DNA of 64,000 nt from Rhodocyclaceae bacterium (GCA_016702335.1 JADJEF010000020.1:1538032-1602031); one strand, 5' to 3'. Counted from the first letter of the stretch, positions 4,740-34,872 are shown. Translations and numbers: made by a program. The notes: generated by a model from the letters alone, not told the origin.

Positions 4740-5851
4740 ACGCCCTGCCTGTGAGAACAATGCACACTGACCCGATCACCGTCGCTATCACCGGCATGAA
4801 CGCACTGCCGGAAAACCCCGGCCCCGGCCTCGCCGTAGCGCGCTGCCTGCGCGAAGCCTTGGGCGAGGGTGTGCGCATTATCGGCCTGGGCTACGACGCG
4901 CTCGATCCGGGCATGTACCTCGACACCTATACCGATGTCGCCTACCTGCTCTCCTACCCGTTGCATGGCAGCGAGGCATTGCTCGAGCGCTTGCAGGAGA
5001 TTCAGCGCATCGAGCAGATCGACGTGCTGATCCCCTGTCTGGATGCCGAGTTGCCACTGATGGTGGCGTTGGCCGAACAAATTACGGCCATGGGCATTCG
5101 CACTTTTTTGCCCGATGCCACGCAATTGCAACGACGCACCAAGGATCGTCTGCCCGAGCTGTGCAAAACCGCCGCCGTGGGCTGCCCGGAGATACAGCCG
5201 CTCAACAGCGCGGCCTTCTTCTACAGCGGCGAAGCCGAGGGGTGGAGCTACCCGCTGGTGGTCAAGGGGCCTTTTTACGACGCCAAGATTTGTCGCAATG
5301 CCGCCGAGGCCACCGCCGCCTTTTACGCCATTGCCGCTGAATGGGGTTACCCGGTGCTGGCCCAGCGCTTCATTGCCGGCGAGGAATACAACCTCGCCGC
5401 GTTGGGCGACGGCAAGGGCGCCATGCTCGGTGAAGTGATGATGAAAAAGCGCGCGCTGACCGCCAAGGGCAAGGCCTGGGCCGGCATTGCCATCAATGAT
5501 GCGGCGCTCGGCGACTTCGCCCGTCGTCTGGTCGCGGAGCTGAAATGGAAAGGCCCGCTCGAAGTCGAAGTGATGCGCGACGAGCACGGCCAGTACCAGC
5601 TCATCGAGATTAACCCGCGCTTTCCGGCGTGGATCTATCTCTCGCAGGGCGTGGGCCGCAACCTGCCGGCGCTGCTGCTGGATCTGGCGCTCGGACGCAC
5701 GCCCGAAGCACTACCGGCGTCACGCCCGGGCACGATGTTCATCCGCTACGCGCAGGAAACCATTGTCGAGCTCAGCGAGTTCGAAACCATGATGATCAAT
5801 GGCAGCACCGTCAATTTCAACCCGCCCTTCAATCTGGGCAAAGGAGAATAA
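4736..5851 (+). CDS. ATP-grasp domain ligase (amino-acid/peptide ligase-like)
   Basis: 371 aa. ATP-grasp signatures (PLVVKGPFYDAKI..., EYNLAALGDGKG, LIEINPRFPAWIYL). Translationally coupled to the PqqD-like gene. Confidence 0.8.
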   Translation: MNALPVRTMHTDPITVAITGMNALPENPGPGLAVARCLREALGEGVRIIGLGYDALDPGMYLDTYTDVAYLLSYPLHGSEALLERLQEIQRIEQIDVLIPCLDAELPLMVALAEQITAMGIRTFLPDATQLQRRTKDRLPELCKTAAVGCPEIQPLNSAAFFYSGEAEGWSYPLVVKGPFYDAKICRNAAEATAAFYAIAAEWGYPVLAQRFIAGEEYNLAALGDGKGAMLGEVMMKKRALTAKGKAWAGIAINDAALGDFARRLVAELKWKGPLEVEVMRDEHGQYQLIEINPRFPAWIYLSQGVGRNLPALLLDLALGRTPEALPASRPGTMFIRYAQETIVELSEFETMMINGSTVNFNPPFNLGKGE

Positions 5852-5853
5852 AC

Positions 5854-7242
5854 ATGGGACACCTTCACCCCTGGATCAAGCCCGTACTCACCGCCCACCG
5901 CGCCGGTGTCATGAACAAGTTCGGTGCCGTGCGCGCGCAGTTTCATCAGCCCGATGTCGATGGCGTGGACATCACCGGCCTGATCGAAAAGTTCGGCTCG
6001 CCGCTCTACATTCTCTCCGAGAAAACCCTGCGCCAGACCGTGCGCCGGCTCAAGCGCGCCTTTGCCACGCGCTGGCCGCGCGTGCGCCACGGCTGGTCGT
6101 ACAAGACCAACTATCTGGGCGCGGTGTGCACCACCCTGCATCAGGAAGGCTCGTGGGCCGAAGTCGTGTCGGCCTACGAGTACCAGAAGGCACGGGCGCT
6201 GGGCGTGCCCGGCTCGCGCATCATCTTCAACGGCCCGCTGAAAGGCGTCGAGATTCTCGAGCAGGCCATCAATGAAGGGGCCACGCTGCACATCGACCAT
6301 TTCGATGAGCTCTACGCCATCGAGCAGATTGCCCAGCGCCTCGACAAGCAGGTGCCGGTCGGCCTGCGCCTGACCTTCGATACCGGCTACACCGACGCCT
6401 GGAGCCGCTTCGGCTTCCATCTCGAATCGGGCGCGGCCATGGACGCGGTGCAGCGCATCGGCGCCAGCCGCCACCTCAAGCTCACCGGCCTGCACAGCCA
6501 CATTGGCACCTTTGTGCTCGACGTGCGCGCTTATGCCGCGCAAGCCAAGATCATGGCCGGCTTCATGGAGCAGGCCGAACAGGCCATCGGCTGCCGCATC
6601 GAGTATCTCGACATTGGCGGCGGCTTCGCCTCGAAGAACGCGCTGCAGGGCTTGTATCTGCCGCCCGAGCAGGTGGTGCCCAGCTTCGAACAATACGCCG
6701 AAGCCATTACCGGCGCGCTGCTGGAGGCCACGCGTGAGCGGGCAGGCAAGGGCAAGCCGCTGCCCGAGTTAGTGCTGGAAACCGGCCGCGCCGTGGTCGA
6801 TGAAGCGGAAGTGCTGATCACCAGCGTGGTCGGCGGCAAGCGCCTGCCCGATGGGCGGCGCGCCGCGATTCTCGATGCCGGAGTCAATCTGTTGTTCACC
6901 GCCTTCTGGTACAACCACGAGGTGCGCCCGGTGCGCCCGCTCGATGGCATTGCCGAAGACACGGTGCTCTACGGCCCGTTGTGCATGAACATCGATGTGC
7001 TGCGCAGTTCCATCATGCTGCCGCCGCTCAATGTCGGCGAGGCGCTGGTGATCCGTAATGTCGGTGCCTACAACAATACCCAGTGGATGCAGTTCATCCA
7101 GCTGCGCCCGGCCATTGTCATGGTGCGCGAAGATGGCAGTGTCGATCTGATCCGCGACGCCGAGCAGGTGGAAACGCTGAGCAACATGGAGCACCTGCCG
7201 GCGAATCTGCAGCAGCCGTTTCCGAAAGGATTGCCGCAGTGA
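5854..7242 (+). CDS. type-III PLP-dependent decarboxylase (DapDC/ODC fold)
   Basis: RBS aaggaga lies 7 bp upstream of ATG 5854. Motifs GSPLYILSEKTLRQ, RIIFNGPLK, LDIGGGF and GPLCMNID match the diaminopimelate/ornithine decarboxylase family. The in-frame extension from 5629 overlaps the ATP-grasp gene and is rejected. Confidence 0.8.
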   Translation: MGHLHPWIKPVLTAHRAGVMNKFGAVRAQFHQPDVDGVDITGLIEKFGSPLYILSEKTLRQTVRRLKRAFATRWPRVRHGWSYKTNYLGAVCTTLHQEGSWAEVVSAYEYQKARALGVPGSRIIFNGPLKGVEILEQAINEGATLHIDHFDELYAIEQIAQRLDKQVPVGLRLTFDTGYTDAWSRFGFHLESGAAMDAVQRIGASRHLKLTGLHSHIGTFVLDVRAYAAQAKIMAGFMEQAEQAIGCRIEYLDIGGGFASKNALQGLYLPPEQVVPSFEQYAEAITGALLEATRERAGKGKPLPELVLETGRAVVDEAEVLITSVVGGKRLPDGRRAAILDAGVNLLFTAFWYNHEVRPVRPLDGIAEDTVLYGPLCMNIDVLRSSIMLPPLNVGEALVIRNVGAYNNTQWMQFIQLRPAIVMVREDGSVDLIRDAEQVETLSNMEHLPANLQQPFPKGLPQ

Positions 7243-25413: not shown

Positions 25414-28400
25414 TCAAGCCTTCCCCGCCTCCCCACTCCCCGCCGCCTTCCGCGTTCGCGGCGCCGTCTTGGCGTGGGGCATATCCGTCATCTCAATCAA
25501 CTGCTTCATTTCCTTGCCCATTGCTTGCACACGCTCCCAGATGTCATGGTCCATCTTGAGCTTGTGGTAGGCCGCTGTGACCAGCGGGGCGATGCCCTTC
25601 TCATAGGTTTCAGACAGGCTGCGCATGGTGGCGGCAATAGCCGGCGATTCCGCCACATCGACCCGTATGCTCGGTTGCAATGCCGCGATCATGTCGCGTA
25701 GCGCCCCCAGCTCCCGCGCCCAGTCCGGCGTACCGGGCAGCGGGCTGGCGAGTTGGGTTCTGAGGCCATCGAGGGTCATGCCGATGTCGGCAAGCAAATT
25801 GGCGACCCGGGTGGCACCGTCGCTTTCGCTCCCGCCAAGTTTCTTCAGGCGTCGGTAGCCTTCGGTGATGGTCGTCCAGCGGGCCTGCTCCTCCTTGGTC
25901 GGCGTGCCAATCAGTTGCGCCAGTTTCAGCAGATTCTCCTCGGCACCGGTGGTCAGCGTCTGCGCTTCGCCTCGGTAGTGGTCGCGCAGCAGTGCGTCGA
26001 GTTCTGCCGGCTCCATGATCGCGGTGACTTTCACTGCCAGCTTGGCCATGTTGCGGTAGCTGCCTTGGAGCTTGAAGGGCGGTTCGACCCTGTAGTCGTC
26101 GTCCTGCGCTGCGGACAGAATGTAGGCTTGATTGACCCGCAGCAGGACGTCGCGCACCTTGAACAAGCGTTGCATGATGCCGGTCAGCTCCGTGAGCTCG
26201 GCGCTGCTGTAGCTGTGGGCGAAGGCACTGGCGGGGATATCTTCGCCCTGGGCGAGTTTGACCAGACGCTCGATGTCTTTCGGGTCGCGGGTGGCCAGCG
26301 GCATCAGCGCCGGGTTCGCCGTCAGGCTGTTTTCGATATAGGACAGCGCGAAGCTGGCTTCCTTGCCCGAGAGCACGTCGCCGAGGTTGTAGATGTCGGC
26401 GCGATTCGCCAGCATGTCGGGGATCTTGAAGGCCTCGCCGGACTCGGTATAGGGATTGCCGGCCATCACCACCGCGAAGCGCTTGCCGCGCATGTCGTAG
26501 GTGCGCGGTGCGCCCTGCCAGACGCCTTCGATGCGGCGGGTGCCGTCGCACAGCGCGATGAACTTTTGCAGAAATTCCGGGTTCGTGTGCTGGATGTCGT
26601 CGAGATAGAGCATCACGTTGTTGCCCATCGCCAGGCCGAGGTTGAGCTTTTCCAGTTCCTGTCTGGCGCCGCTATGCGGGGCCTGGGTGGGGTCGAGCGA
26701 GACCACGTCGTGGCCCAGCGCCGGGCAGTTGATGCGCACAAAGATCAGCCCCAGGCGGTCGGCGATGTATTCCATCAGCGTGGTCTTGCCGTAGCCGGGC
26801 GGCGAGATCAGCAGCAGCATGCCCATGCGGTCGGTGCGCTTGGCGTCGCCGGCCGCGCCGATCTGCTTGGCCAGGTTGTCACCGACCAGCGGCAGATAGA
26901 CCTCGTCGATCAGGCGGTTGCGCACAAAGCTGGAGAGCGGCTTGGCCTGGAACTGGTCGAGGTGGAGTTGCGCTTTCTCGCTGGCCAACACTTGCTGGCG
27001 CAGCGCCTGCCAGCGCCGAAACTGAGGCACGATGCCGTTGGCGTGCTGACGCAGACGGCCGTGGAAATCGTTGAGATTGAGCGCAAGCTGACCGTTCTCG
27101 ATGCGCGGGTGTTCGCCGCGCAGGCCCGCGACGGTGCAGGCGAGGTCGGCGTTGTGGCGCTGGCGCGGCAGGTCAAGCACCAGCGTCGCCGCCGCTTCGT
27201 CGCTCCAGGCTGCCTCTGTCGGCGCGTGGGCTTGTTGGTAGCTGCCCACCCAGTCGCGCGCGAGGTGCCAGGCGTCGAGCGGGGTACAGTCGGCGAGGCT
27301 GTCTCGCCAGCGGGCAAGCTGTCCCTGGCGTTCGAGATGGCGGACGAAGGCGTCGGCCAGGTCGAGTGCCGCTCCGCTGGCGATCCATGCGCCGTCGCTG
27401 GCGAGTTCGTCGACCAGGTAGGCGGCGGCCTCCTCACTGAGTTCCGGCCCAGCGGCCCAGAGCTTCAGCAGGTGTTCGCGCTCGGCGATGCGTGCGATAT
27501 CGGGTGCCCAGCGGGTGATCAAGGCCTGGCGGACATTGGCTGCGCCGAAGAGTTGATAGATCTGCCCGGCGCTGGCGGCTTGACGTTGCAGGCGCGGACG
27601 TTCAATCATCGGCGCACCTTGCAGCCAGAACAGCGCGGCCAACACGCGCGCCCGTGGGCTGAAGGCCAGACGGCTGGCCTGGGCTTGCATCGGCAGCAGG
27701 GCGGTCAGGATGGCGGCGGTGTCGTGGTCGTGCACGCCCTTTTGGTAGCCTTCCTGATAGCGGGCGGCGCTGAATTCGCGCACCAGTGCCAAGAGCCCCT
27801 CCTGCGTGTCGGCGCTGCACAGGGTTTGCAGGGTGTCGAGGGTGGTTTCATACTCGCCGCGCTGGCAGGCGTGCAGAATCTCTCCAGCGAGGTATTCGGC
27901 GCGGTAAAGGGTGGCAGATTCCGAGACCAGCGCCATCGTCCAGAAGGGCTTGAGCGCTTGTGCTTCTTCGTGTTGCAGCGGCACCAGATAGTCGGTGCCG
28001 GTGAGGTGATAGGCCAGGCCTTGCTCGCCGGGAACCAGCGTCAGATCGAGCGCCTGGTGACCCACCGTGAACGCGTGCCGCCCCAGGTGGATGGTATTGC
28101 CGTCTTCGCCGGTCAGTTCGGCGCGGTCGCGCACGGCGCGAATGGCCTGGTCGCGGGCAGTCTTCAGCCGGGTGTCAAGGTCGTCGGCCTGCAGTTGCGC
28201 GCCGATCTTGCGCAATTCGTCGCAGACGCTGCGGCATTTGGCCAGCAGTGGGTCGCCGGCGAAATAGCCATGCACCTCGGCCAGTTCCTTGAATTGCTGC
28301 ACCCGACGGGGGATGCCGGCGATGATACGTTGGGCGGAGTCCATCAAGGTCTGCGCGCGGCGCTGGCGGGTTTCCAGCAGTTGCTGCTTTCGGGCGGTCA

Positions 28401-30693
28401 GCGCCTCGTAGACCGCCTCGCGCTTTTCGCTGAGGTCGGCGGCGAAGCCTTCCTGTTCGCCGAAGCGTCCTTCGAGTTCTTCGAGCTGCGCCAGCAGCCG
28501 CGTCATCGCATCGTCGCATTGTTCGGGCGTGTCGACCCGCTCCAGCGCGCTTTCGACGGACTGGGCGAAGAGCTTGAACTGAGCGCCGAATTCGGCGGAG
28601 AGTTCGACGCTGGCGAGGTGCTTGCGGCGATTGCGCACCTCTGCCCGCAGCCGGTTGGTTTCGGCGTAGGTGCTGGAAATCTGCTCGAGGATGCCGGTGC
28701 GCGCGGTGGCGTCGCCGCTGGGCAAGTTAGCGACCAGTTCGTTCAACAGGTCCAGGGCGTGGGCGGTGTGTTCGAGGGCCTTGCCTTGCTCGTCAAGCTG
28801 GGTCGTGGTTGTTGCGGTGCCGATGGCAGCTGAGGTTGCGACCAATGCGCTCAGATAGGGCTGAAAGGCTTTGTCGGTGAGCAGGAAGGCAAGGGTCTTC
28901 TCGCCGATTCGTAGCTGTTCGGAGGCCAGTTGCTGGTCGATGGCGTCGATGCGCGGCAGGTCGATGTAGCGCTGCTCGCGCAACGCCAGTAGCCGCCCGC
29001 GCTCCATGCGCAGGCGGTCGAGCATGGCGACGAATTCGTCCGGGTGCTGCCAGAGCTTGGCGGCGATGTCGGTGAGCAGTTTGTGCTGCTCGCCTTCGGC
29101 CTGGGCGAGCAGGCGGGCAGCTTCGCGGCGGATGGCAGCGACCTTGTCGAATTCGTCGAGCGCGGCTCGGGCTGTCCCGGCGATAGCCTTGAGATCAGCA
29201 TCGGCATGGCCCGCTTCGTCGCTGGCCAGCCAGAAATAGCCGTCGAGAATGCGGCTGCACAGACGCAGCAGGTCTTCATAGACCACGCGCGTCGGTGCCT
29301 GCTCGCCGACCGCGCGAGTAATTTCCATCGATTCGGCGATGCCGCGCACCAGTTCGGCATTGCCGATACGGCCGAAGAAACTGGCGCGATCGACGTTACG
29401 CTCGGCGTGATCGTCGCTGACGAAGGGCGTTTGCCAGAGTTGCATCGGATGTAGCCGCGTCGGCTCGTCGGCATCGCTCTGGAACACCAGCATGCGGCCG
29501 TCGTCGTAGCGGGCGTAGCCGTGGGAGAAGACCGGCGTGCCGAGACGCTTTTCGATCAGGTTGTAGGTGAATAGGGCATATTGGCCGCCACCGGGCTGGT
29601 AAAAGACGTAGAGCACGTCTTCGCCGTTCGGCGAGCGCTGCATGCGCTTGAAGCGTAGGCCGGTATTACCCATCGTGGCGTCGGGGGGCAGGTCGAAGCG
29701 CTTGTGCTCGCCGGCTTGCAGGTAGTAGCCGCCGGGGAAGATGATGCCGTGGTCCTCCGGCAGTTGCACGCACGACGGGCCAATGGCGTCGATGCGGACG
29801 ACCTGCTGGGTGCGGTGGTTATAGACCAGATAGCGGTAGTCCGGCTCGCGGTAGGGCTTGATCTTGAGCAGGATCAGCGAACCGAGGCGAACATAGTAGA
29901 TCTCTGCGTCGGCCAGCGACTGGTTCTTGTCAACGACGGGTTCGGCATAGATGCCCAGCCCGCTTTCTGTGTTGTTCTCGATTTTGACGGTGAGATCGCC
30001 GCCAACCGTCTCGACGAAGATGGTGTTGAGGATATTGATGTGGGGGTGGCGACCCGTGATGTGGTCTTCGCGGCGGGTGGGTAGCCATTCGAAGTCGTGA
30101 GCCGCCGGTAGCGCGATGTCGCGCTCGCCGCGGTTGTCGATGTATTTAAGGCTACCGTCGAGTTCGATGGACCAGCGGAAAACGCGCAGATCGGTGAGCT
30201 GCTGGCCGATCTGGAAGGCGGCGAGGAGCTTGTGCTGGTTGATGCGCAACTGCGTCAGGCTGGCCTGCTTGTAGTAGCTGTAGAGCTCGCGAAAATCCAT
30301 CTCGAAACGCGAATCGGCGAGGAAGCTGCCCTCCAGCGGGACAGCTTCCAGTTCTTCGCTGCCCGCCGCCTCGTTCAGGCGATAGAGGCTGAACACGTCT
30401 GCTGCCTGGATGTCCTTGCGCAGGCCCATGAAGACGTTGTAGCCGAAGACCAGGGTATCGCCGACCCGGACGATGTCGCGGGCGACACAGTTGTTCTCGG
30501 TGCGCGCGCGCAGGCGGGCTTGCAGCTTGAGGTCGGAGCGGCCGAAGGCGGTCAGGCGCGCTTCGTTAAGCTGCTTGATTTTGCCGGCCAAGACCTCGCC
30601 CTGTTGCTGGAGGCGCTTCCTCAGCAGTTCGTAGCTGCCGCCAGCGGCAACTGCGGCTTCGACTTGGGTGCTGTCTGTTTCGGCTTGGGTCAT
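25414..30693 (-). CDS. giant (1759 aa) uncharacterised protein with C-terminal-half AAA+ ATPase domain
   Basis: Single uninterrupted ORF. P-loop LLISPPGYGKTT followed by Walker B-like MLYLDDIQH near residue 1330. Same strand as, and downstream of, yqiJ-flotillin. Confidence 0.8.
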   Translation of the reverse strand: MTQAETDSTQVEAAVAAGGSYELLRKRLQQQGEVLAGKIKQLNEARLTAFGRSDLKLQARLRARTENNCVARDIVRVGDTLVFGYNVFMGLRKDIQAADVFSLYRLNEAAGSEELEAVPLEGSFLADSRFEMDFRELYSYYKQASLTQLRINQHKLLAAFQIGQQLTDLRVFRWSIELDGSLKYIDNRGERDIALPAAHDFEWLPTRREDHITGRHPHINILNTIFVETVGGDLTVKIENNTESGLGIYAEPVVDKNQSLADAEIYYVRLGSLILLKIKPYREPDYRYLVYNHRTQQVVRIDAIGPSCVQLPEDHGIIFPGGYYLQAGEHKRFDLPPDATMGNTGLRFKRMQRSPNGEDVLYVFYQPGGGQYALFTYNLIEKRLGTPVFSHGYARYDDGRMLVFQSDADEPTRLHPMQLWQTPFVSDDHAERNVDRASFFGRIGNAELVRGIAESMEITRAVGEQAPTRVVYEDLLRLCSRILDGYFWLASDEAGHADADLKAIAGTARAALDEFDKVAAIRREAARLLAQAEGEQHKLLTDIAAKLWQHPDEFVAMLDRLRMERGRLLALREQRYIDLPRIDAIDQQLASEQLRIGEKTLAFLLTDKAFQPYLSALVATSAAIGTATTTTQLDEQGKALEHTAHALDLLNELVANLPSGDATARTGILEQISSTYAETNRLRAEVRNRRKHLASVELSAEFGAQFKLFAQSVESALERVDTPEQCDDAMTRLLAQLEELEGRFGEQEGFAADLSEKREAVYEALTARKQQLLETRQRRAQTLMDSAQRIIAGIPRRVQQFKELAEVHGYFAGDPLLAKCRSVCDELRKIGAQLQADDLDTRLKTARDQAIRAVRDRAELTGEDGNTIHLGRHAFTVGHQALDLTLVPGEQGLAYHLTGTDYLVPLQHEEAQALKPFWTMALVSESATLYRAEYLAGEILHACQRGEYETTLDTLQTLCSADTQEGLLALVREFSAARYQEGYQKGVHDHDTAAILTALLPMQAQASRLAFSPRARVLAALFWLQGAPMIERPRLQRQAASAGQIYQLFGAANVRQALITRWAPDIARIAEREHLLKLWAAGPELSEEAAAYLVDELASDGAWIASGAALDLADAFVRHLERQGQLARWRDSLADCTPLDAWHLARDWVGSYQQAHAPTEAAWSDEAAATLVLDLPRQRHNADLACTVAGLRGEHPRIENGQLALNLNDFHGRLRQHANGIVPQFRRWQALRQQVLASEKAQLHLDQFQAKPLSSFVRNRLIDEVYLPLVGDNLAKQIGAAGDAKRTDRMGMLLLISPPGYGKTTLMEYIADRLGLIFVRINCPALGHDVVSLDPTQAPHSGARQELEKLNLGLAMGNNVMLYLDDIQHTNPEFLQKFIALCDGTRRIEGVWQGAPRTYDMRGKRFAVVMAGNPYTESGEAFKIPDMLANRADIYNLGDVLSGKEASFALSYIENSLTANPALMPLATRDPKDIERLVKLAQGEDIPASAFAHSYSSAELTELTGIMQRLFKVRDVLLRVNQAYILSAAQDDDYRVEPPFKLQGSYRNMAKLAVKVTAIMEPAELDALLRDHYRGEAQTLTTGAEENLLKLAQLIGTPTKEEQARWTTITEGYRRLKKLGGSESDGATRVANLLADIGMTLDGLRTQLASPLPGTPDWARELGALRDMIAALQPSIRVDVAESPAIAATMRSLSETYEKGIAPLVTAAYHKLKMDHDIWERVQAMGKEMKQLIEMTDMPHAKTAPRTRKAAGSGEAGKA

Positions 30694-30884
30694 GACGGTT
30701 CGTGGTGTTCCGAGGATTCCATTCGGTCAGGCTCGGCATTCAAAAAGGCAAGCATTTCTCGCCGCTGGCCCTGTTGCGTCAGCCATTGACGCATCTCACA
30801 CAGACGCGCAAATTCGGCAGCCCCAAAGCGAGCGCTGCAATAGCAGAACAACTCGGCTGCGCTCGCTTTTTTGCGTGCCGTCAT
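30690..30884 (-). CDS. small hypothetical protein (64 aa), translationally coupled to the giant gene
   Basis: Start lies 6 bp after the flotillin stop. Its stop overlaps the giant gene start (ATGA). No homology recognised. Confidence 0.35.
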   Translation of the reverse strand: MTARKKASAAELFCYCSARFGAAEFARLCEMRQWLTQQGQRREMLAFLNAEPDRMESSEHHEPS

Positions 30885-30889
30885 TGCGA

Positions 30890-33112
30890 CTAATTGCGCA
30901 AGCTGGTGACGAATTTCTGTAATGCCGAGCGCTGGTCCGCCGTGCCCTCCTGCATCACCTTGGTCATGATCGCGGTCAGGCTCAGGTTTTGCAGCTCGGG
31001 CGACGAACTGCCCAGTGCGCCGATCAGACCTTGCAGATCGCCGACCATGTCGCGTTCGCCGGCGAGGTGATCTTTGAGCGCAATCTGCAGCGTTTCGCTC
31101 TTGGCGATTGCGCCGTCAATACCCTTGCCGACTGCCAGCGCATTGACGAAGCGCTGGAAGTAATCGCCTTCGCCGCCGACGATGTCGATCTTGGCGTGGC
31201 TCATGGCCGATGACAGGACTTCGGCCTGTTCTTTGGCGATACTGGTTTGTGCCTCGATGCCCTTGAGGATTTCGATATGGGCGTTGTTCACGCGCACGCG
31301 ATATTCCTCGTGCGCCCGTGTCTCCGGCGACATTTCGGCCATGGCGGCGAATTTTTCCTTCAGACCGCGCGCTTCCGCAATCATGCGGGCTTCGACGGCT
31401 TCGCCTTCTGCATGGCCTTGCTTGCTGACGGCTTCGGCGTCGGCGGCTTTGATAGTCACGGCGGCCATGCCGAGCTGCTGGTTGCCTTGTGCCTGTGCTT
31501 CGAGCTTGAGGCGCAGCACATCGGCTTCGGCAGTGCCGTATTTCGCGGTGGCGTCAGCGTCGGCGATTTTCACCTTGGCGGCGACCATGCCGAGTTGCTG
31601 GTTACCCTGTGCCTGTGCTTCGAGCTTGAGGCGCAGCACATCGGCTTCGGCGGTGCCGAATTTCGCAGTGGCGTCGGCGTCGGCGATCTTCACCTTGGCG
31701 GCGACCATGCCAGCTTTCTCGTTGGCGTCGGCAGTGGCCAGTTGCACCTTCGCGGCGGCGAGGCCCGGGGCGGCGGCGTAGGCTTCGATACCCTCGGCCT
31801 CGCGCTTCTTGGCCTCGGCGTCCTTTTCGGCAACCTTCAATTTGGCTTCGGCCAGGGTCAAATCCCGCGTGGCTTGATGACGCGCCTTGCGTTCATCGGA
31901 CTCCGCGGCTTTCACCTGCAGCACCAGATCATGCTCTGCCTTGCCTTCCGCTTCGATGACGGTTGACTTGCGGACGCGGTCAGCCTCTGACACCAGGCGA
32001 ACTTCCTTGATCGCTTCCTCCTGCTCGGCGACCGTGCGCTCGACGATGACCCGTTCGCGGATCACATCGGCGATGGCCTTCTTCTGCACTTCGACCGCCT
32101 TGTCCTTGTCTATGGTCTGCAGCGTGACTTCTTTCTCGCGGTCAACGATCTCCAACAGGCGGGCGCGGGTGACGCGCTCTTCCTCGATGGCGACAGCGCG
32201 TTGGCGGTTGTTGGCGGCCACTTCGGTTTCGCGCCTGACGTTTTCCTTTTGTACCGCGATCAACTGGTCGGCCTGCAGCCCGGCCAGTTCGCCCTTGGCG
32301 CGCTCTTCGGACTGCACCTTGCGTGATTCGGCCTCTTCACGGGCTTGAACGACGGCAATTTCCCGAAGCTGACGGGCCTGCGCCTCGGCTTGCTGACGCT
32401 CCAGCTCATAGATGGTTTCCTGCGTCTCGACGTCTTTCTTCTTTATCTTGGCCTGTTCGTCGCGCTCCCACTGATTGGTCTGAATATGCTCGATGGCGGT
32501 CAGCTCGGTGATCTTGCGGATACCTTGGGCATCCATGATGTTGCGGGGATCGAGCCTGTCGAGCGGCGTTTGCTCCAAATAGTCGATAGCGGCGTCTTCC
32601 AGCACGTAGCCGGACAGGTTGTCGCCGATCTGGCGGAGTATTTCGTCCCGGAAGCGGTCGCGAGCCTGATAGAGGTCTTCGAAATTCATCGACTTGCCGG
32701 CGGTCTTAAGGGCTTCGGAGAATTTGGCGGCGAAGAGTTCTTCCAGGGTTTCCTGACTCGACGCACGGGCGCAGCCAATGTTCTGAGCGACCTTCATCAC
32801 GTCGGCGGTGGTCTTATTGACATGCACGAAAAAGGTAACTTCGATGTCGGCGCGGATATTGTCCTTGCAGATCAGCCCCTGATTTCCGGTGCGCTTGATC
32901 ACGATGGTCTTGATGGAGATTTCCATCATCTCCATCTTGTGAATGATCGGATACACCATGCCGCCGGTGAAGGTGACCTCCGGCATGGCGGAGAGGTTAT
33001 TCACGATCATCGCGTGCCCCTGTTCCACCTTGTGATAGAACTTCGCGAACAGAGCGAACAGTCCGAAGACGAAGATCGCCAGTATGACGATAGCAGTGAG
33101 GATCAGTTCCAT
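30890..33112 (-). CDS. yqiK: flotillin-like SPFH/band-7 protein (YqiK family) with long coiled-coil and internal 39-aa tandem repeats
   Basis: N-terminal TM plus SPFH domain (MIVNNLSAMPEVTFTGGMVYPIIHKMEMMEISIKTI). Long E/A/K/R-rich coiled-coil. C-terminal flotillin-like tail. Confidence 0.85.
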   Translation of the reverse strand: MELILTAIVILAIFVFGLFALFAKFYHKVEQGHAMIVNNLSAMPEVTFTGGMVYPIIHKMEMMEISIKTIVIKRTGNQGLICKDNIRADIEVTFFVHVNKTTADVMKVAQNIGCARASSQETLEELFAAKFSEALKTAGKSMNFEDLYQARDRFRDEILRQIGDNLSGYVLEDAAIDYLEQTPLDRLDPRNIMDAQGIRKITELTAIEHIQTNQWERDEQAKIKKKDVETQETIYELERQQAEAQARQLREIAVVQAREEAESRKVQSEERAKGELAGLQADQLIAVQKENVRRETEVAANNRQRAVAIEEERVTRARLLEIVDREKEVTLQTIDKDKAVEVQKKAIADVIRERVIVERTVAEQEEAIKEVRLVSEADRVRKSTVIEAEGKAEHDLVLQVKAAESDERKARHQATRDLTLAEAKLKVAEKDAEAKKREAEGIEAYAAAPGLAAAKVQLATADANEKAGMVAAKVKIADADATAKFGTAEADVLRLKLEAQAQGNQQLGMVAAKVKIADADATAKYGTAEADVLRLKLEAQAQGNQQLGMAAVTIKAADAEAVSKQGHAEGEAVEARMIAEARGLKEKFAAMAEMSPETRAHEEYRVRVNNAHIEILKGIEAQTSIAKEQAEVLSSAMSHAKIDIVGGEGDYFQRFVNALAVGKGIDGAIAKSETLQIALKDHLAGERDMVGDLQGLIGALGSSSPELQNLSLTAIMTKVMQEGTADQRSALQKFVTSLRN
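31444..31710. repeat. 117-bp direct tandem repeat (~2.3 copies) inside the flotillin gene
   Basis: 31467-31583 and 31584-31700 are near-identical. They encode the repeated AGMVAAKVKIADADATAK(F/Y)GTAEADVLRLKLEAQAQGNQQL segment. Confidence 0.85.
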
Positions 33113-33137
33113 TGGTTTGCCTTTCGGTGGGTTGTAG

Positions 33138-33800
33138 TCAAACGGGATCGGTGGTGGCTGGGTCGACGCCAGTGACGCGGTAGCGCTGAGCGGCTTCGTC
33201 GTAGTTGATTATCAGCGCCTGCGCTCCCTTGCAAAGGGTATTCGGTTCGGCGGCGGCAATGCGAATATTGAAGCTGCCGGTGTGATCGGCGCCCTCGGCC
33301 TGACCAAACGCTTCGCCGACTGTCAGCGTAGTGACCCGGCAGTACAGGCCGATCAGACCCTGGCTGGATCGCGCGGTATGGCGCACGAACAAGCCACGTA
33401 TTGGCTGCACCAGGAGCGCAGTGAGAAAAATGGACGGTGCCAACGCGAGCACGGCAACGGCCAGACCCGCCACGGCACGCAAGGGCGCAGTGGGCACCCA
33501 GGACAGGAGGTATTGGGAAATTAGCCCGGTGATTACCCAGGCGATCAGGGTTACCAGGCTGATCACTATCGAGAACGGCACGCCGCTCAAGCCGAAGGCG
33601 ACAACGTAACCGGCGATGGTGGAAAGATGCTCGCCGCCGCTGTGGTTGGGCACCTCGTGGTGGGCATCGATATGCAAATGGCCGTGGTCAAAATTGACGA
33701 CGCCCACCAGCGCCATCAGCCAGTACAGCACCACCACGCCAAGCAATACCGTATAGACACCCGTCGGCCAGCCGACAATCAGTGTTAGCAATGCGTCCAT
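33138..33800 (-). CDS. yqiJ: NfeD-like inner-membrane protein (YqiJ family), partner of the flotillin
   Basis: Multi-TM N-terminus plus C-terminal beta-rich domain (VTTLTVGEAFGQAEG...ALIINYDEAAQRYRV). Lies immediately upstream of the flotillin gene. Confidence 0.7.
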   Translation of the reverse strand: MDALLTLIVGWPTGVYTVLLGVVVLYWLMALVGVVNFDHGHLHIDAHHEVPNHSGGEHLSTIAGYVVAFGLSGVPFSIVISLVTLIAWVITGLISQYLLSWVPTAPLRAVAGLAVAVLALAPSIFLTALLVQPIRGLFVRHTARSSQGLIGLYCRVTTLTVGEAFGQAEGADHTGSFNIRIAAAEPNTLCKGAQALIINYDEAAQRYRVTGVDPATTDPV

Positions 33801-33927
33801 ACCCGTCCTCGCTCAGTTCGCGCCGCCAAAGCCTGTCATTGTGCGGCTATGGGGAAAGTCAATCAAGTCGAATTTGATGACGGCGCGCTTGAATTTGCTG
33901 CCGAAGACTCTCTGCGGCAACGGTGAG

Positions 33928-34872
33928 TCAGCGAGTCTGCGAGGCGATCCAGATCGCCAGCCCCTGAGCATCCAGTTCCAGATCCATGTCCCAGATCTCC
34001 AGCAACTGCACATCTGACTGCTGACAGCCGTGGGCGCGCGCTTCGGCCAGCAGGTAGGTGCGCAGGTGCTGATGAATCGCCGCAATCGCCGTGTCACCAG
34101 CGCCGACTTGCCGCGCAATCGCCACCATGCCGTCCAGCCGGCGCAGCAGGTCAGTCGCTAGCAACGCGGGCGGTGCGCGCCGGCTGTAGTGGGTGAGATA
34201 CACCGCCTCGGGCTGGCAGGCGAGCATGCGTGCCACCGAATCGCGCATGGCCTCGGGATCAAACTGGCTGGGCGTGGTGGTGGGGAAGATGAAGGCGCGG
34301 CCATCGACATCGCATTCGCGATAACTCAGTCCAAAGGTATCGCCGGTGAATAGGCCACGCGCGGCGTGATCGTGAATGAAGACATGGTGCTTGGCATGGC
34401 CGGGGCAGTCATGAAAGCTCAGGGTGCGTGCGCCCAATGTCAGCATCATCCCATCGGTGGTTTCGAGCACGCGTTCGGCTGCAATGGGGATAAGCGCACC
34501 GTAGAGTGCCTTGGCGCGCTCGCTGCCGTATACCTCTTCGGTCGCGGCCCAGAGCTTGGCGGGCTCGATCATGTGCCGCGCCCCGCGCGGGTGCACCACC
34601 AGTTTGGCGTGCGGAAAGGCCTGCATCATGGCGCCAGCGCCGCCGGCATGATCGAGGTGAATGTGTGTGAGCAACACATAGTCAACGCAGTCCGGCGTGA
34701 GGCCCAGCTCGCTCAGCGCAGCTTGAGCGGCCGGCAGGCTGTAGTTGCTGCCGCAATCGACAAAGGCGGCGCGACCGTTGTCGATAATCAGGTGGATCGC
34801 CGCCAGTTGGTGGCGCACATAGGTGGCGTCGATGGCATGAATGCCGTTGCCGTAGTCGATGCGGGGGGTCAT
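33928..34872 (-). CDS. MBL-fold metallo-hydrolase
   Basis: LLTHIHLDHAGG motif. 314 aa. Contains a copy of the dispersed repeat near its 3' end (encoding VGAGDTAIA). Confidence 0.75.
   Translation of the reverse strand: MTPRIDYGNGIHAIDATYVRHQLAAIHLIIDNGRAAFVDCGSNYSLPAAQAALSELGLTPDCVDYVLLTHIHLDHAGGAGAMMQAFPHAKLVVHPRGARHMIEPAKLWAATEEVYGSERAKALYGALIPIAAERVLETTDGMMLTLGARTLSFHDCPGHAKHHVFIHDHAARGLFTGDTFGLSYRECDVDGRAFIFPTTTPSQFDPEAMRDSVARMLACQPEAVYLTHYSRRAPPALLATDLLRRLDGMVAIARQVGAGDTAIAAIHQHLRTYLLAEARAHGCQQSDVQLLEIWDMDLELDAQGLAIWIASQTR
34087..34113 (+). repeat. dispersed element copy 4
   Basis: CGCCGTgtcaCCAGCGCCGACTTGCCG. Lies inside the minus-strand MBL gene, where it encodes ...VGAGDTAIA... Confidence 0.85.

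Follow-up and report, generated by a model that had tools for sequence, protein, structure and literature searches.

A flotillin and giant AAA+ ATPase gene cluster in a Rhodocyclaceae bacterium and its relation to conserved envelope-stress operons

It is still an unsettled matter how bacteria and eukaryotes build, regulate, and remove SPFH/flotillin scaffolds, and to our knowledge no ATPase is known to act on them. Considered here is a single locus in a stretch of 64,000 nt from a Rhodocyclaceae bacterium (the window, from whose first letter the cluster coordinates are counted), in which 4 open reading frames (ORFs) follow one another on the minus strand, encoding a YqiJ/NfeD-like membrane protein, a flotillin, a protein of 64 residues, and a giant protein of 1759 residues with an AAA+ domain. 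Two things are to be settled, namely whether the flotillin and the giant ATPase are functionally linked, as the initial annotation of the locus had proposed, and whether their architecture belongs to a described system, to which that annotation could not assign it. We identified the linkage as real and widely conserved, but the architecture, including its trimmed form, is already published, as described in the portions of Ravi et al. 2024 (PMC11237479) covered here. The window almost certainly carries the abbreviated form of a conserved envelope-stress cluster that lacks PspA, because no PspA, DUF2170, or PLD gene was identified in its 64 kb.

Conserved gene order and published counterparts

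ORF calls and translations placed the 4 ORFs at the same positions and on the same strand as in the initial annotation (Table 1). Read from the sequence, 25 nt separate the stop codon of the YqiJ-like gene from the flotillin ATG, and 5 nt, rather than the 6 bp first reported, separate the flotillin TAG from the ATG of the small ORF, whose own stop codon overlaps the ATG of the giant gene as ATGA, the coupling that had been described. Spacing this tight, with 5 nt and then an ATGA overlap, speaks for cotranscription of the flotillin and giant genes, as far as spacing can indicate it.

One genome per species was scanned for relatives of the giant protein, giving 80 loci with 45-68% identity over the best aligned segment. 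With the window proteins as tblastn queries, 76 of these loci were informative, having at least 900 nt of upstream DNA, and 70 had at least 3.6 kb upstream. A flotillin gene was identified directly 5' of the giant gene in 74 of the 76 loci, with homologues 44-80% identical, and the YqiJ-like gene and the flotillin were both present in 68 of the 70, with the YqiJ-like gene directly 5' of the flotillin. The same gene order was found in the 4 nearest metagenomic loci (69-80% identity); altogether, the comparison covered 76 informative species loci and 11 metagenomic ones. This check of linkage across genomes, which the initial annotation had called for, supports its proposal.

The order also extends to distant members of the family. 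A search with the N-terminal domain (N-domain) against 1.84 billion representative proteins returned 728 clusters at 50% identity, 250 of them at E ≤ 1e-30, and among the 150 best matches listed, full-length members were about 1,600-1,930 residues long. By source names, distant members of the family occur in Vibrio and in the Bacteroidota genera Niabella and Flammeovirga. Six distant relatives, with N-domain identities of 30-36%, led to 7 loci in which a gene for a protein of 204-245 residues is followed by one for 646-710 residues and then by the giant gene; in 6 of these loci, 1 per relative, the first 2 genes were confirmed as YqiJ-like and flotillin by blastp and profile comparison (hmmsearch E 7e-13 to 5e-38 for the YqiJ-like protein). 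The identities of the 3 genes to the window copies covary (Spearman 0.76-0.82, n = 71), so that the triad diverges in step and therefore behaves as one inherited unit. Across Beta- and Gammaproteobacteria, and in the 6 distant relatives as well, YqiJ-like gene, flotillin, and giant ATPase follow one another with hardly an exception.

Most loci carry further genes besides this triad. PspA/YjfJ, with DUF2170/YjfI, lies upstream in 55 of the 69 loci with enough upstream DNA, and a PLD-like (HKD) hydrolase was found in 35 of the 76, nearly always 3' of the giant gene. The full form of the cluster is DUF2170/YjfI (a CesT-like chaperone), PspA/YjfJ, YqiJ-like protein, flotillin/YqiK, DUF3686 AAA+ protein, and PLD-like hydrolase.

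In the portions covered here, Ravi et al. 2024 (PMC11237479) describe CesT/Tir (YjfI)-PspA operons that include a flotillin, a 3-transmembrane protein of the YqiJ/YuaF type, and a "novel AAA+ ATPase with coiled-coil and beta-propeller," with PLD added in some Proteobacteria. They also report that "related abbreviated operons," reduced to flotillin and YqiJ/YuaF and in some cases the ATPase, occur widely and may use a PspA encoded elsewhere. The gene set and domain architectures of the window match this abbreviated form, with the propeller weakly supported here, and the CesT/Tir-PspA dyad of the full form is absent from the window (tblastn, E ≤ 1e-4). The same portions of that paper make no mention of zinc-ribbon, 79-residue TerB-like, 113-residue, or TelA accessories, nor of a MoxR-like character or an Asp-Asp Walker B motif in the ATPase. 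Within the same limits of the source, novelty may therefore lie in these accessories, in the Asp-Asp Walker B shared by all members examined, in the likeness of the ATPase to MoxR, and in the interpretation of the 64-residue ORF as a deletion stub. The window itself is one more trimmed example of the published architecture, to which it adds some detail on accessory genes and on the misleading name "DNA repair ATPase."

The best-studied counterpart in our comparison is the bac operon of Pseudomonas aeruginosa (PA3732-PA3727, PA14_16140-16200; Mace 2008, PMC2587700; PMC10948618). By reverse-transcription PCR across every junction, bacABCDEF form 1 transcript, and proteins BacB to BacF rise 6-13 fold in a bacA mutant (PMC10948618), so that, together with the synteny in 74 of 76 loci and in the distant loci, both transcription and co-regulated proteomics speak for the functional link that had been proposed for the window. 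From the synteny of a P. paraeruginosa locus (L055) and the label "ATPase," BacC would correspond to the YqiJ-like protein, BacD to the flotillin, BacE (PA3728) to the giant DUF3686 ATPase, and BacF to the PLD-like hydrolase, and the window triad, left without a counterpart by the initial annotation, would be bacC-bacD-bacE. With the same locus as a stand-in, the core order of YqiJ-like gene, flotillin, and giant DUF3686 AAA+ gene is shared, and BacE is about 50% identical to the window protein. The 2 clusters differ in that bacA (DUF2170), bacB (PspA), and bacF (PLD-like) have no counterpart within the 64 kb, in that a sigma-54 site has been proposed 5' of bacA whereas none like it was found in the window, and in that the stand-in has a flotillin-ATPase gap of 149 nt without a zinc-ribbon stub whereas the window carries one.

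The bac operon has been tied to biofilm formation, virulence, and envelope stress in P. aeruginosa. The PspA-like PA3731 is raised by osmotic shock and biofilm growth (PMC2587700), and staphylococcal peptides that act on membranes induce it as well. Phage infection of P. aeruginosa raised the expression of 17 genes in every infected sample, PA3728-PA3732 among them, and PA3728 is listed as mutated in cystic-fibrosis isolates in 3 studies. An eLife paper on the Arc pathway was set aside as evidence on PA3729, which figures there only as a background protein in pull-downs.

The pairing of SPFH2 flotillins with NfeD proteins has been known since 2009 (Hinderhofer 2009, PMC2636767). As in Escherichia coli yqiJ-yqiK and Bacillus subtilis yuaF-floT, a small protein with several transmembrane segments and a C-terminal OB-like domain is encoded in the window directly 5' of a YqiK-type flotillin. 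In E. coli K-12, however, yqiK is followed by the sibD/ibsD locus and not by a giant ATPase, and the window flotillin is about 190 residues longer than YqiK.

The three core proteins

The flotillin call of the initial annotation was upheld by a match to Pfam Band_7 (E 4.2e-10) and by similarity to E. coli YqiK (BLASTP, 26% identity over 439 residues, E 1e-31). The protein comprises an N-terminal transmembrane segment, visible in the translation as a hydrophobic stretch, the Band_7/SPFH domain, a long coiled coil rich in Ala/Glu/Lys repeats, and a C-terminal flotillin region. Tandem Repeats Finder identified a 120-bp tandem repeat (2.2 copies, 92% matches) that doubles a 40-residue coiled-coil unit in the translation, the duplicated unit reading GMVAAKVKIADADATAK.GTAEADVLRLKLEAQAQGNQQL. 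The flotillin has 740 residues in the window and 699-701 in its nearest relatives, the extra length being probably due to this repeat, which looks like a recent in-frame expansion.

Near its N-terminus the YqiJ-like protein of 220 residues carries about 3 hydrophobic segments, and its C-terminal domain is beta-rich. No match to it was identified in Pfam or NCBIfam at E ≤ 0.01, and direct comparison with E. coli YqiJ by BLASTP was not significant (E 3.7). A profile of 15 orthologous sequences, on the other hand, gave a moderate match to YqiJ in hhalign (76% probability, E 2.3e-5, collinear over 133 columns). The YqiJ/NfeD-like label of the initial annotation is thus reasonable on the basis of profile, size, topology, and position, although family databases and pairwise search do not return it. 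Sequence searches of the PDB with the flotillin, the YqiJ-like protein, and the 15-sequence YqiJ-like profile gave no significant match.

The giant protein has more than 5,458 homologues and is 100% identical to a protein named "DNA repair ATPase" from a Rhodocyclaceae metagenome-assembled genome (MAG). Its N-terminal ~1200 residues, initially regarded as unrecognized, are covered in part by 2 Pfam families of unknown function, DUF3686 (PF12458, residues 35-487, 645 bits against a cut-off of 25, profile positions 2-448 of 448) and DUF7902 (PF25472, residues 608-691), the latter lying within a long helical region at about 430-860. We obtained 2 AlphaFold2 models, of the N- and C-terminal parts, from an input alignment of 56 sequences. 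The predicted order comprises N-terminal helices (6-64), a beta-rich domain (71-405), long helices of about 430 residues (430-860, with a predicted local distance difference test score, pLDDT, mostly of 80-90 in 497-860), a small beta domain (867-905), a helical domain (930-1250), the AAA+ core (~1290-1440), and C-terminal helices. Most of the matches that Foldseek listed for the N-terminal model are to structures with a beta-propeller domain (YVTN, TolB, prolyl oligopeptidase, and the N-terminal domain of clathrin heavy chain), and a propeller-like fold of the giant N-domain is weakly supported by this model.

A P-loop AAA+ domain is present in the C-terminal half, as had been noted, but is confined to the last third of the protein. 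Pfam AAA, AAA_5, and AAA_22 matches around residues 1290-1416 all exceed their cut-offs (25.6 bits against 22 for AAA_5), and the PF00004 AAA match is partial, with residues 1293-1332 covering profile positions 1-40 of 131. Against the PDB, Foldseek gave 523 matches at E ≤ 1e-3 for the C-terminal model, and all 50 of the 50 listed were AAA+ ATPases, the best being the MoxR-family proteins NorQ (E 1.6e-6, TM-score on target 0.58) and CbbQ (0.54), and RuvB. A beta-hairpin is predicted at ~1387-1400, between the helix that follows Walker B and the sensor-1 strand, and the AAA+ core therefore fits the MoxR/RuvB group and not the classical Vps4-type AAA clade. Membership in the classical AAA clade (Vps4/spastin/Cdc48 type) was rejected on the partial PF00004 match, the predicted hairpin, and the lack of an MIT domain detectable by Pfam in the giant protein. 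Sequence searches of the PDB with the giant protein and its 56-sequence profile returned nothing significant (Rix7 and Rpt3 at E 0.04-0.08), and NCBIfam and PHROGs scans of all 4 proteins gave nothing useful.

The Walker A motif reads SPPGYGKTT and the Walker B motif LYLDDIQH (residues ~1361-1368, window ~26590-26613), with Asp-Asp in place of Asp-Glu, and the sensor-1/Arg region of the core reads AGNPYTESGEAFKIPDMLANRAD. Walker A, Walker B, and the stretch AGNPYTE...PDMLANRAD are invariant in the 56 homologues and conserved in the 6 distant relatives, in which the AAA+ core is visibly much more conserved than the N-domain. The ATPase site is the most constrained part of the giant protein, since its motifs are kept where the N-domain is only about 30% identical.

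Proposed scaffold remodelling and competing explanations

We favor the reading that the window encodes an abbreviated envelope-stress cluster with ATP-driven remodelling of its scaffold, to which, taken as a whole, we assign a probability of roughly 0.6. That the YqiJ-like protein, the flotillin, and the giant ATPase work together is very probable, whereas ATP-driven scaffold remodelling as the mechanism is tentative and stands at somewhat under even odds. In this mechanism, the flotillin, held and tuned by its YqiJ-like partner of the NfeD type, would form an SPFH scaffold on the inner membrane, and the giant protein would dock on it through its N-terminal propeller and long helical arm. The AAA+ ring would use ATP to assemble, remodel, or dismantle the flotillin scaffold, together with PspA polymers where these are encoded, so that the giant ATPase would act in effect as Vps4 does on ESCRT-III, with an AAA+ domain that is not of the Vps4 type. 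The module of the window genome may act alone or with a PspA encoded elsewhere, and the 64-residue ORF would be a remnant, devoid of zinc ribbons, of an optional accessory, whose retained C-terminal motif may still bind the ATPase.

The resemblance to Vps4 and ESCRT-III, with PspA as the bacterial ESCRT-III, lies in an AAA+ ATPase gene that adjoins the gene of a membrane-remodelling polymer (PspA in the 55 of 69 loci given above), and in the portions covered here Ravi et al. 2024 (PMC11237479) draw the ESCRT parallel for PspA-linked AAA+ ATPases in general. It is a resemblance and not homology, given an AAA+ domain closest to MoxR/RuvB, the lack of a Pfam MIT domain, and the lack of PspA in the window. 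Since the cluster almost always joins a flotillin/NfeD pair to a highly conserved AAA+ giant, it is a natural place to seek an ATPase that acts on SPFH proteins. A bolder version, in which the giant DUF3686 protein would be a dedicated ATP-driven machine for the assembly and disassembly of bacterial flotillin (SPFH) scaffolds, the C-terminal motif of the zinc-ribbon protein and the TerB-like protein exchangeable docking adaptors, and the triad without PspA the minimal working unit, is in our estimate rather unlikely. On that version, no regulator of SPFH microdomains that consumes energy would have been known before it from any organism.

Several observations weigh against the favored reading. 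We found no experiment in the literature on the activity of the giant ATPase, nor a demonstrated interaction with flotillin, YqiJ, or PspA. The AAA+ domain is closest in Foldseek to MoxR/RuvB and not to Vps4, and the usual task of MoxR proteins is to mature client complexes together with a VWA partner, not to dismantle polymers. The Asp-Asp Walker B, as a sequence feature, could point to slow, switch-like hydrolysis rather than to a processive unfoldase. Model confidence was modest (pLDDT 77 and 74, predicted template modelling score 0.36-0.48), and the Foldseek comparison of the N-terminal model with the PDB was weak, with 1 match at E ≤ 1e-3 and TM-scores of 0.05-0.09 on the query. Neither DUF2170 nor PspA (Pseudomonas queries, tblastn, E ≤ 1e-4), nor a PLD or TerB-like gene, was identified in the 64-kb window; the first 3 are the genes that the full cluster would bring. 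Scans for sigma-70 promoters and terminators and for the sigma-54 pattern gave nothing in the 127 nt upstream of the cluster and chance-level counts overall, so that the transcription unit cannot be fixed from the sequence alone. Finally, 2 loci, from Azoarcus (L015) and Methyloprofundus (L053) MAGs, carry the giant gene without a nearby flotillin. A hidden, diverged flotillin was ruled out in both, as the upstream genes are unrelated: L015 has transketolase, OmpW, and PIN-domain genes upstream, and the other locus has divergently transcribed unrelated genes. The same stretch of L015 (3653-8149) also includes a Cas Csy4 gene. Because of its unrelated upstream genes, the giant gene of L015 is suggested to have been relocated by rearrangement.

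The rival that survives best takes the giant protein as a MoxR-type maturation chaperone for a third-party client membrane complex in the flotillin microdomain, such as one for respiration, transport, or secretion, with flotillin and YqiJ serving only as a platform and neither the scaffold nor PspA as the substrate. The structural matches to NorQ and CbbQ and the AAA_5 match above its cut-off are what such a chaperone would give, and the sensor-1/Arg-finger stretch resembles what we take to be the MoxR signature. MoxR proteins are of about 300 residues and work with a VWA partner. The window module differs from the MoxR family (NorQ/NorD, CbbQ/CbbO, RavA/ViaA) in that it follows ~1,290 residues of extra domains and has Asp-Asp rather than Asp-Glu in Walker B, and no VWA protein was seen among the conserved neighbors scanned with Pfam, a search that was neither systematic nor exhaustive. 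SPFH proteins are generally thought to corral client proteins, according to the portions of PMC11237479 covered here, which would suit a platform; no conserved client gene travels with the triad, however, and the recurrent accessories (PspA, TerB-like, TelA, PLD) are all of membrane-stress types. We consider this explanation distinctly unlikely.

Less probable still, and in our estimate improbable, is an anti-phage or anti-toxin defence system in which flotillin, YqiJ, and PspA would sense the disturbance of the membrane by an invader, the giant nucleoside triphosphatase (NTPase) would transduce, and the PLD-like hydrolase would be the effector. Very large NTPases are common in defence systems, the PLD (HKD) gene follows the giant gene in 35 of 76 loci, and PA3728-PA3732 rise in all phage-infected P. 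aeruginosa samples. That osmotic shock, biofilm growth, and membrane-active peptides also act as inducers speaks instead for a general envelope-stress response, and a PLD effector is missing from the window and from many other loci. PADLOC 2.0 returned only 2 weak P-loop matches to IetA for the giant protein (E 0.002 and 0.009) and none for the other 3 proteins, and PHROGs gave no meaningful match. Identity to the window drops with taxonomic distance, and the flanks hold ordinary chromosomal genes and no defence islands.

According to the Pfam description of DUF3686 and the NCBI name "ATPase involved in DNA repair," the giant protein would be a DNA repair ATPase and its adjacency to flotillin incidental, which we regard as very improbable. 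The weak P-loop similarities to RuvB are limited to the generic AAA+ core (NCBIfam RuvB 18-19 bits against cut-offs of 282-299), Pfam detected no DNA-binding or nuclease domain, and the invariant neighbors are membrane proteins. Although recJ lies downstream in Pseudomonas, it was detected in only 12 of 80 genome loci, all of them pseudomonads and at variable distances of 1.4 to 8 kb, and recJ linkage was for that reason also rejected as the source of the name. Our literature search returned no paper with "DUF3686" and none joining "DNA repair ATPase" with flotillin. The name, which has spread to thousands of proteins, looks misleading, as we found no domain, context, or paper that supports it. 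That the genes are unrelated and adjacent by chance or local rearrangement, for which L015, L053, and the lack of a mapped promoter or terminator in the window could be cited, is effectively refuted by the synteny data, with the same order in 74 of 76 loci and 6 distant relatives, alongside the ATGA overlap and gaps of 5-25 nt in the window and the single transcript in P. aeruginosa.

Accessory genes, the 64-residue ORF, and flanking sequence

Besides PspA, DUF2170, and PLD, we identified 3 recurrent accessories among the 76 loci. A TFIIB-type zinc-ribbon protein of ~180-195 residues is encoded in 31 (22 before the giant gene and 9 after it), a TerB-like protein of 79 residues in 20 (Pfam TerB E 5.8e-5, just below the cut-off), and a protein of 113 residues with no Pfam match in 30, from Betaproteobacteria and a few others. 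Where the zinc-ribbon and TerB-like genes stand relative to the giant gene differs between lineages. In 3 of the 6 distant relatives a TelA gene (PF05816) lies at most 2 kb 3' of the giant gene, and in another a convergent PspA gene abuts its end. The TelA and TerB-like neighbors would link the cluster to membrane-stress proteins of the "tellurite-resistance" type.

The closest relative, a locus of 80% identity (L081), has the fullest cluster, and that of the window is reduced. Between its zinc-ribbon and giant genes, L081 carries an extra gene for 315 residues (5044-5991) that has no Pfam match and overlaps the zinc-ribbon gene as ATGA; none of the 76 genome loci was found to have this gene, and the window lacks it too. 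An ORF of 82 residues directly after the giant gene of the window (25413-25165) was considered as a TerB-like accessory and rejected, having no similarity to the TerB-like protein of the nearest relatives.

The gap between the flotillin and giant genes varies from 3 to 859 nt across loci, and the 64-residue ORF that fills it in the window clusters with the zinc-ribbon family that other loci encode at this place, on whose full-length members Pfam Zn_ribbon_TFIIB matches. It aligns only to the conserved C-terminal ~35 residues of that family, with residues 18-52 matching residues 153-187 of the 195-residue L081 protein (60% identity, E 1e-11), and at the DNA level it is 70% identical to the L081 gene (4460-5047) over 96 nt. 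Residues 7-19 match L081 residues 2-14 weakly (E 0.04 in a nine-sequence database). The ORF looks like the stub that an in-frame internal deletion would leave of a double zinc-ribbon protein, with both ribbons lost across a short repeat, and this reading depends on the weak N-terminal match. The proposed junction falls between CYCSAR and FGAAEF, where L081 reads CYCSPR... and ...SRFGDADY, and the stub would keep ~13 N-terminal residues and the C-terminal motif R.R.WL..Q..R.E.L.(F/L)L.

Over the retained 35 C-terminal codons, a small sample, the ratio of nonsynonymous to synonymous substitution rates (dN/dS) is 0.25, with dS ~1.2. The reading frame and start codon are intact and the ATGA coupling is kept, a hint that the stub, or at least its being translated, still serves a purpose. 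ORFs with only the C-terminal part were also identified in 2 other loci (L002, 9786-9944; L014, 9666-9785), which suggests that the motif is a separable module of the zinc-ribbon protein. The 64-residue ORF had been taken for a member of the operon; it is present and coupled through ATGA, but judging by its relatives and its absence from most loci, it is neither a random ORF nor a core component.

Table 1. Positions of the cluster, its domains and its neighbors; coordinates are those of the window unless a locus is named
Feature	Position	Strand	Basis
YqiJ/NfeD-like membrane protein, 220 residues, first cluster gene	33138-33800	-	ORF, translation, profile comparison, position
YqiK-type flotillin (SPFH2), 740 residues	30890-33112	-	Pfam Band_7, BLASTP YqiK, synteny
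120-bp tandem repeat within flotillin coiled-coil region	31459-31715		Tandem Repeats Finder
64-residue ORF, apparent zinc-ribbon deletion stub	30690-30884	-	Clustering with zinc-ribbon family, alignment to L081 zinc-ribbon protein (ZnR195)
Giant protein, 1759 residues, "DNA repair ATPase" in databases	25414-30693	-	Pfam, homologues, AlphaFold2, Foldseek
DUF3686 region, residues 35-487	29233-30591	-	PF12458 E 4.9e-194
DUF7902, residues 608-691	28621-28872	-	PF25472 E 1e-21
AAA+ ATPase core, residues ~1290-1440	26374-26826	-	Pfam AAA_22/AAA/AAA_5, AlphaFold2, Foldseek
Intergenic 127 nt 5' of first cluster gene, presumed promoter region	33801-33927	-	Sequence
TelA/PspA neighbors of distant members	L086 12001-13221; L088 12502-13608; L090 12586-13701; L091 11902-12648		

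A GAGGA sequence lies 8 nt 5' of the ATG of the YqiJ-like gene. The upstream neighbor on the same strand is a metallo-beta-lactamase-fold gene (33928-34872, minus strand; Lactamase_B E 3.7e-25), which occupies the position held in relatives by the DUF2170-PspA pair and resembles the anti-Pycsar Apyc1 family weakly, at 22 bits where the cut-off is 50. Downstream, the cluster is followed by a convergent ABC-transporter permease gene.

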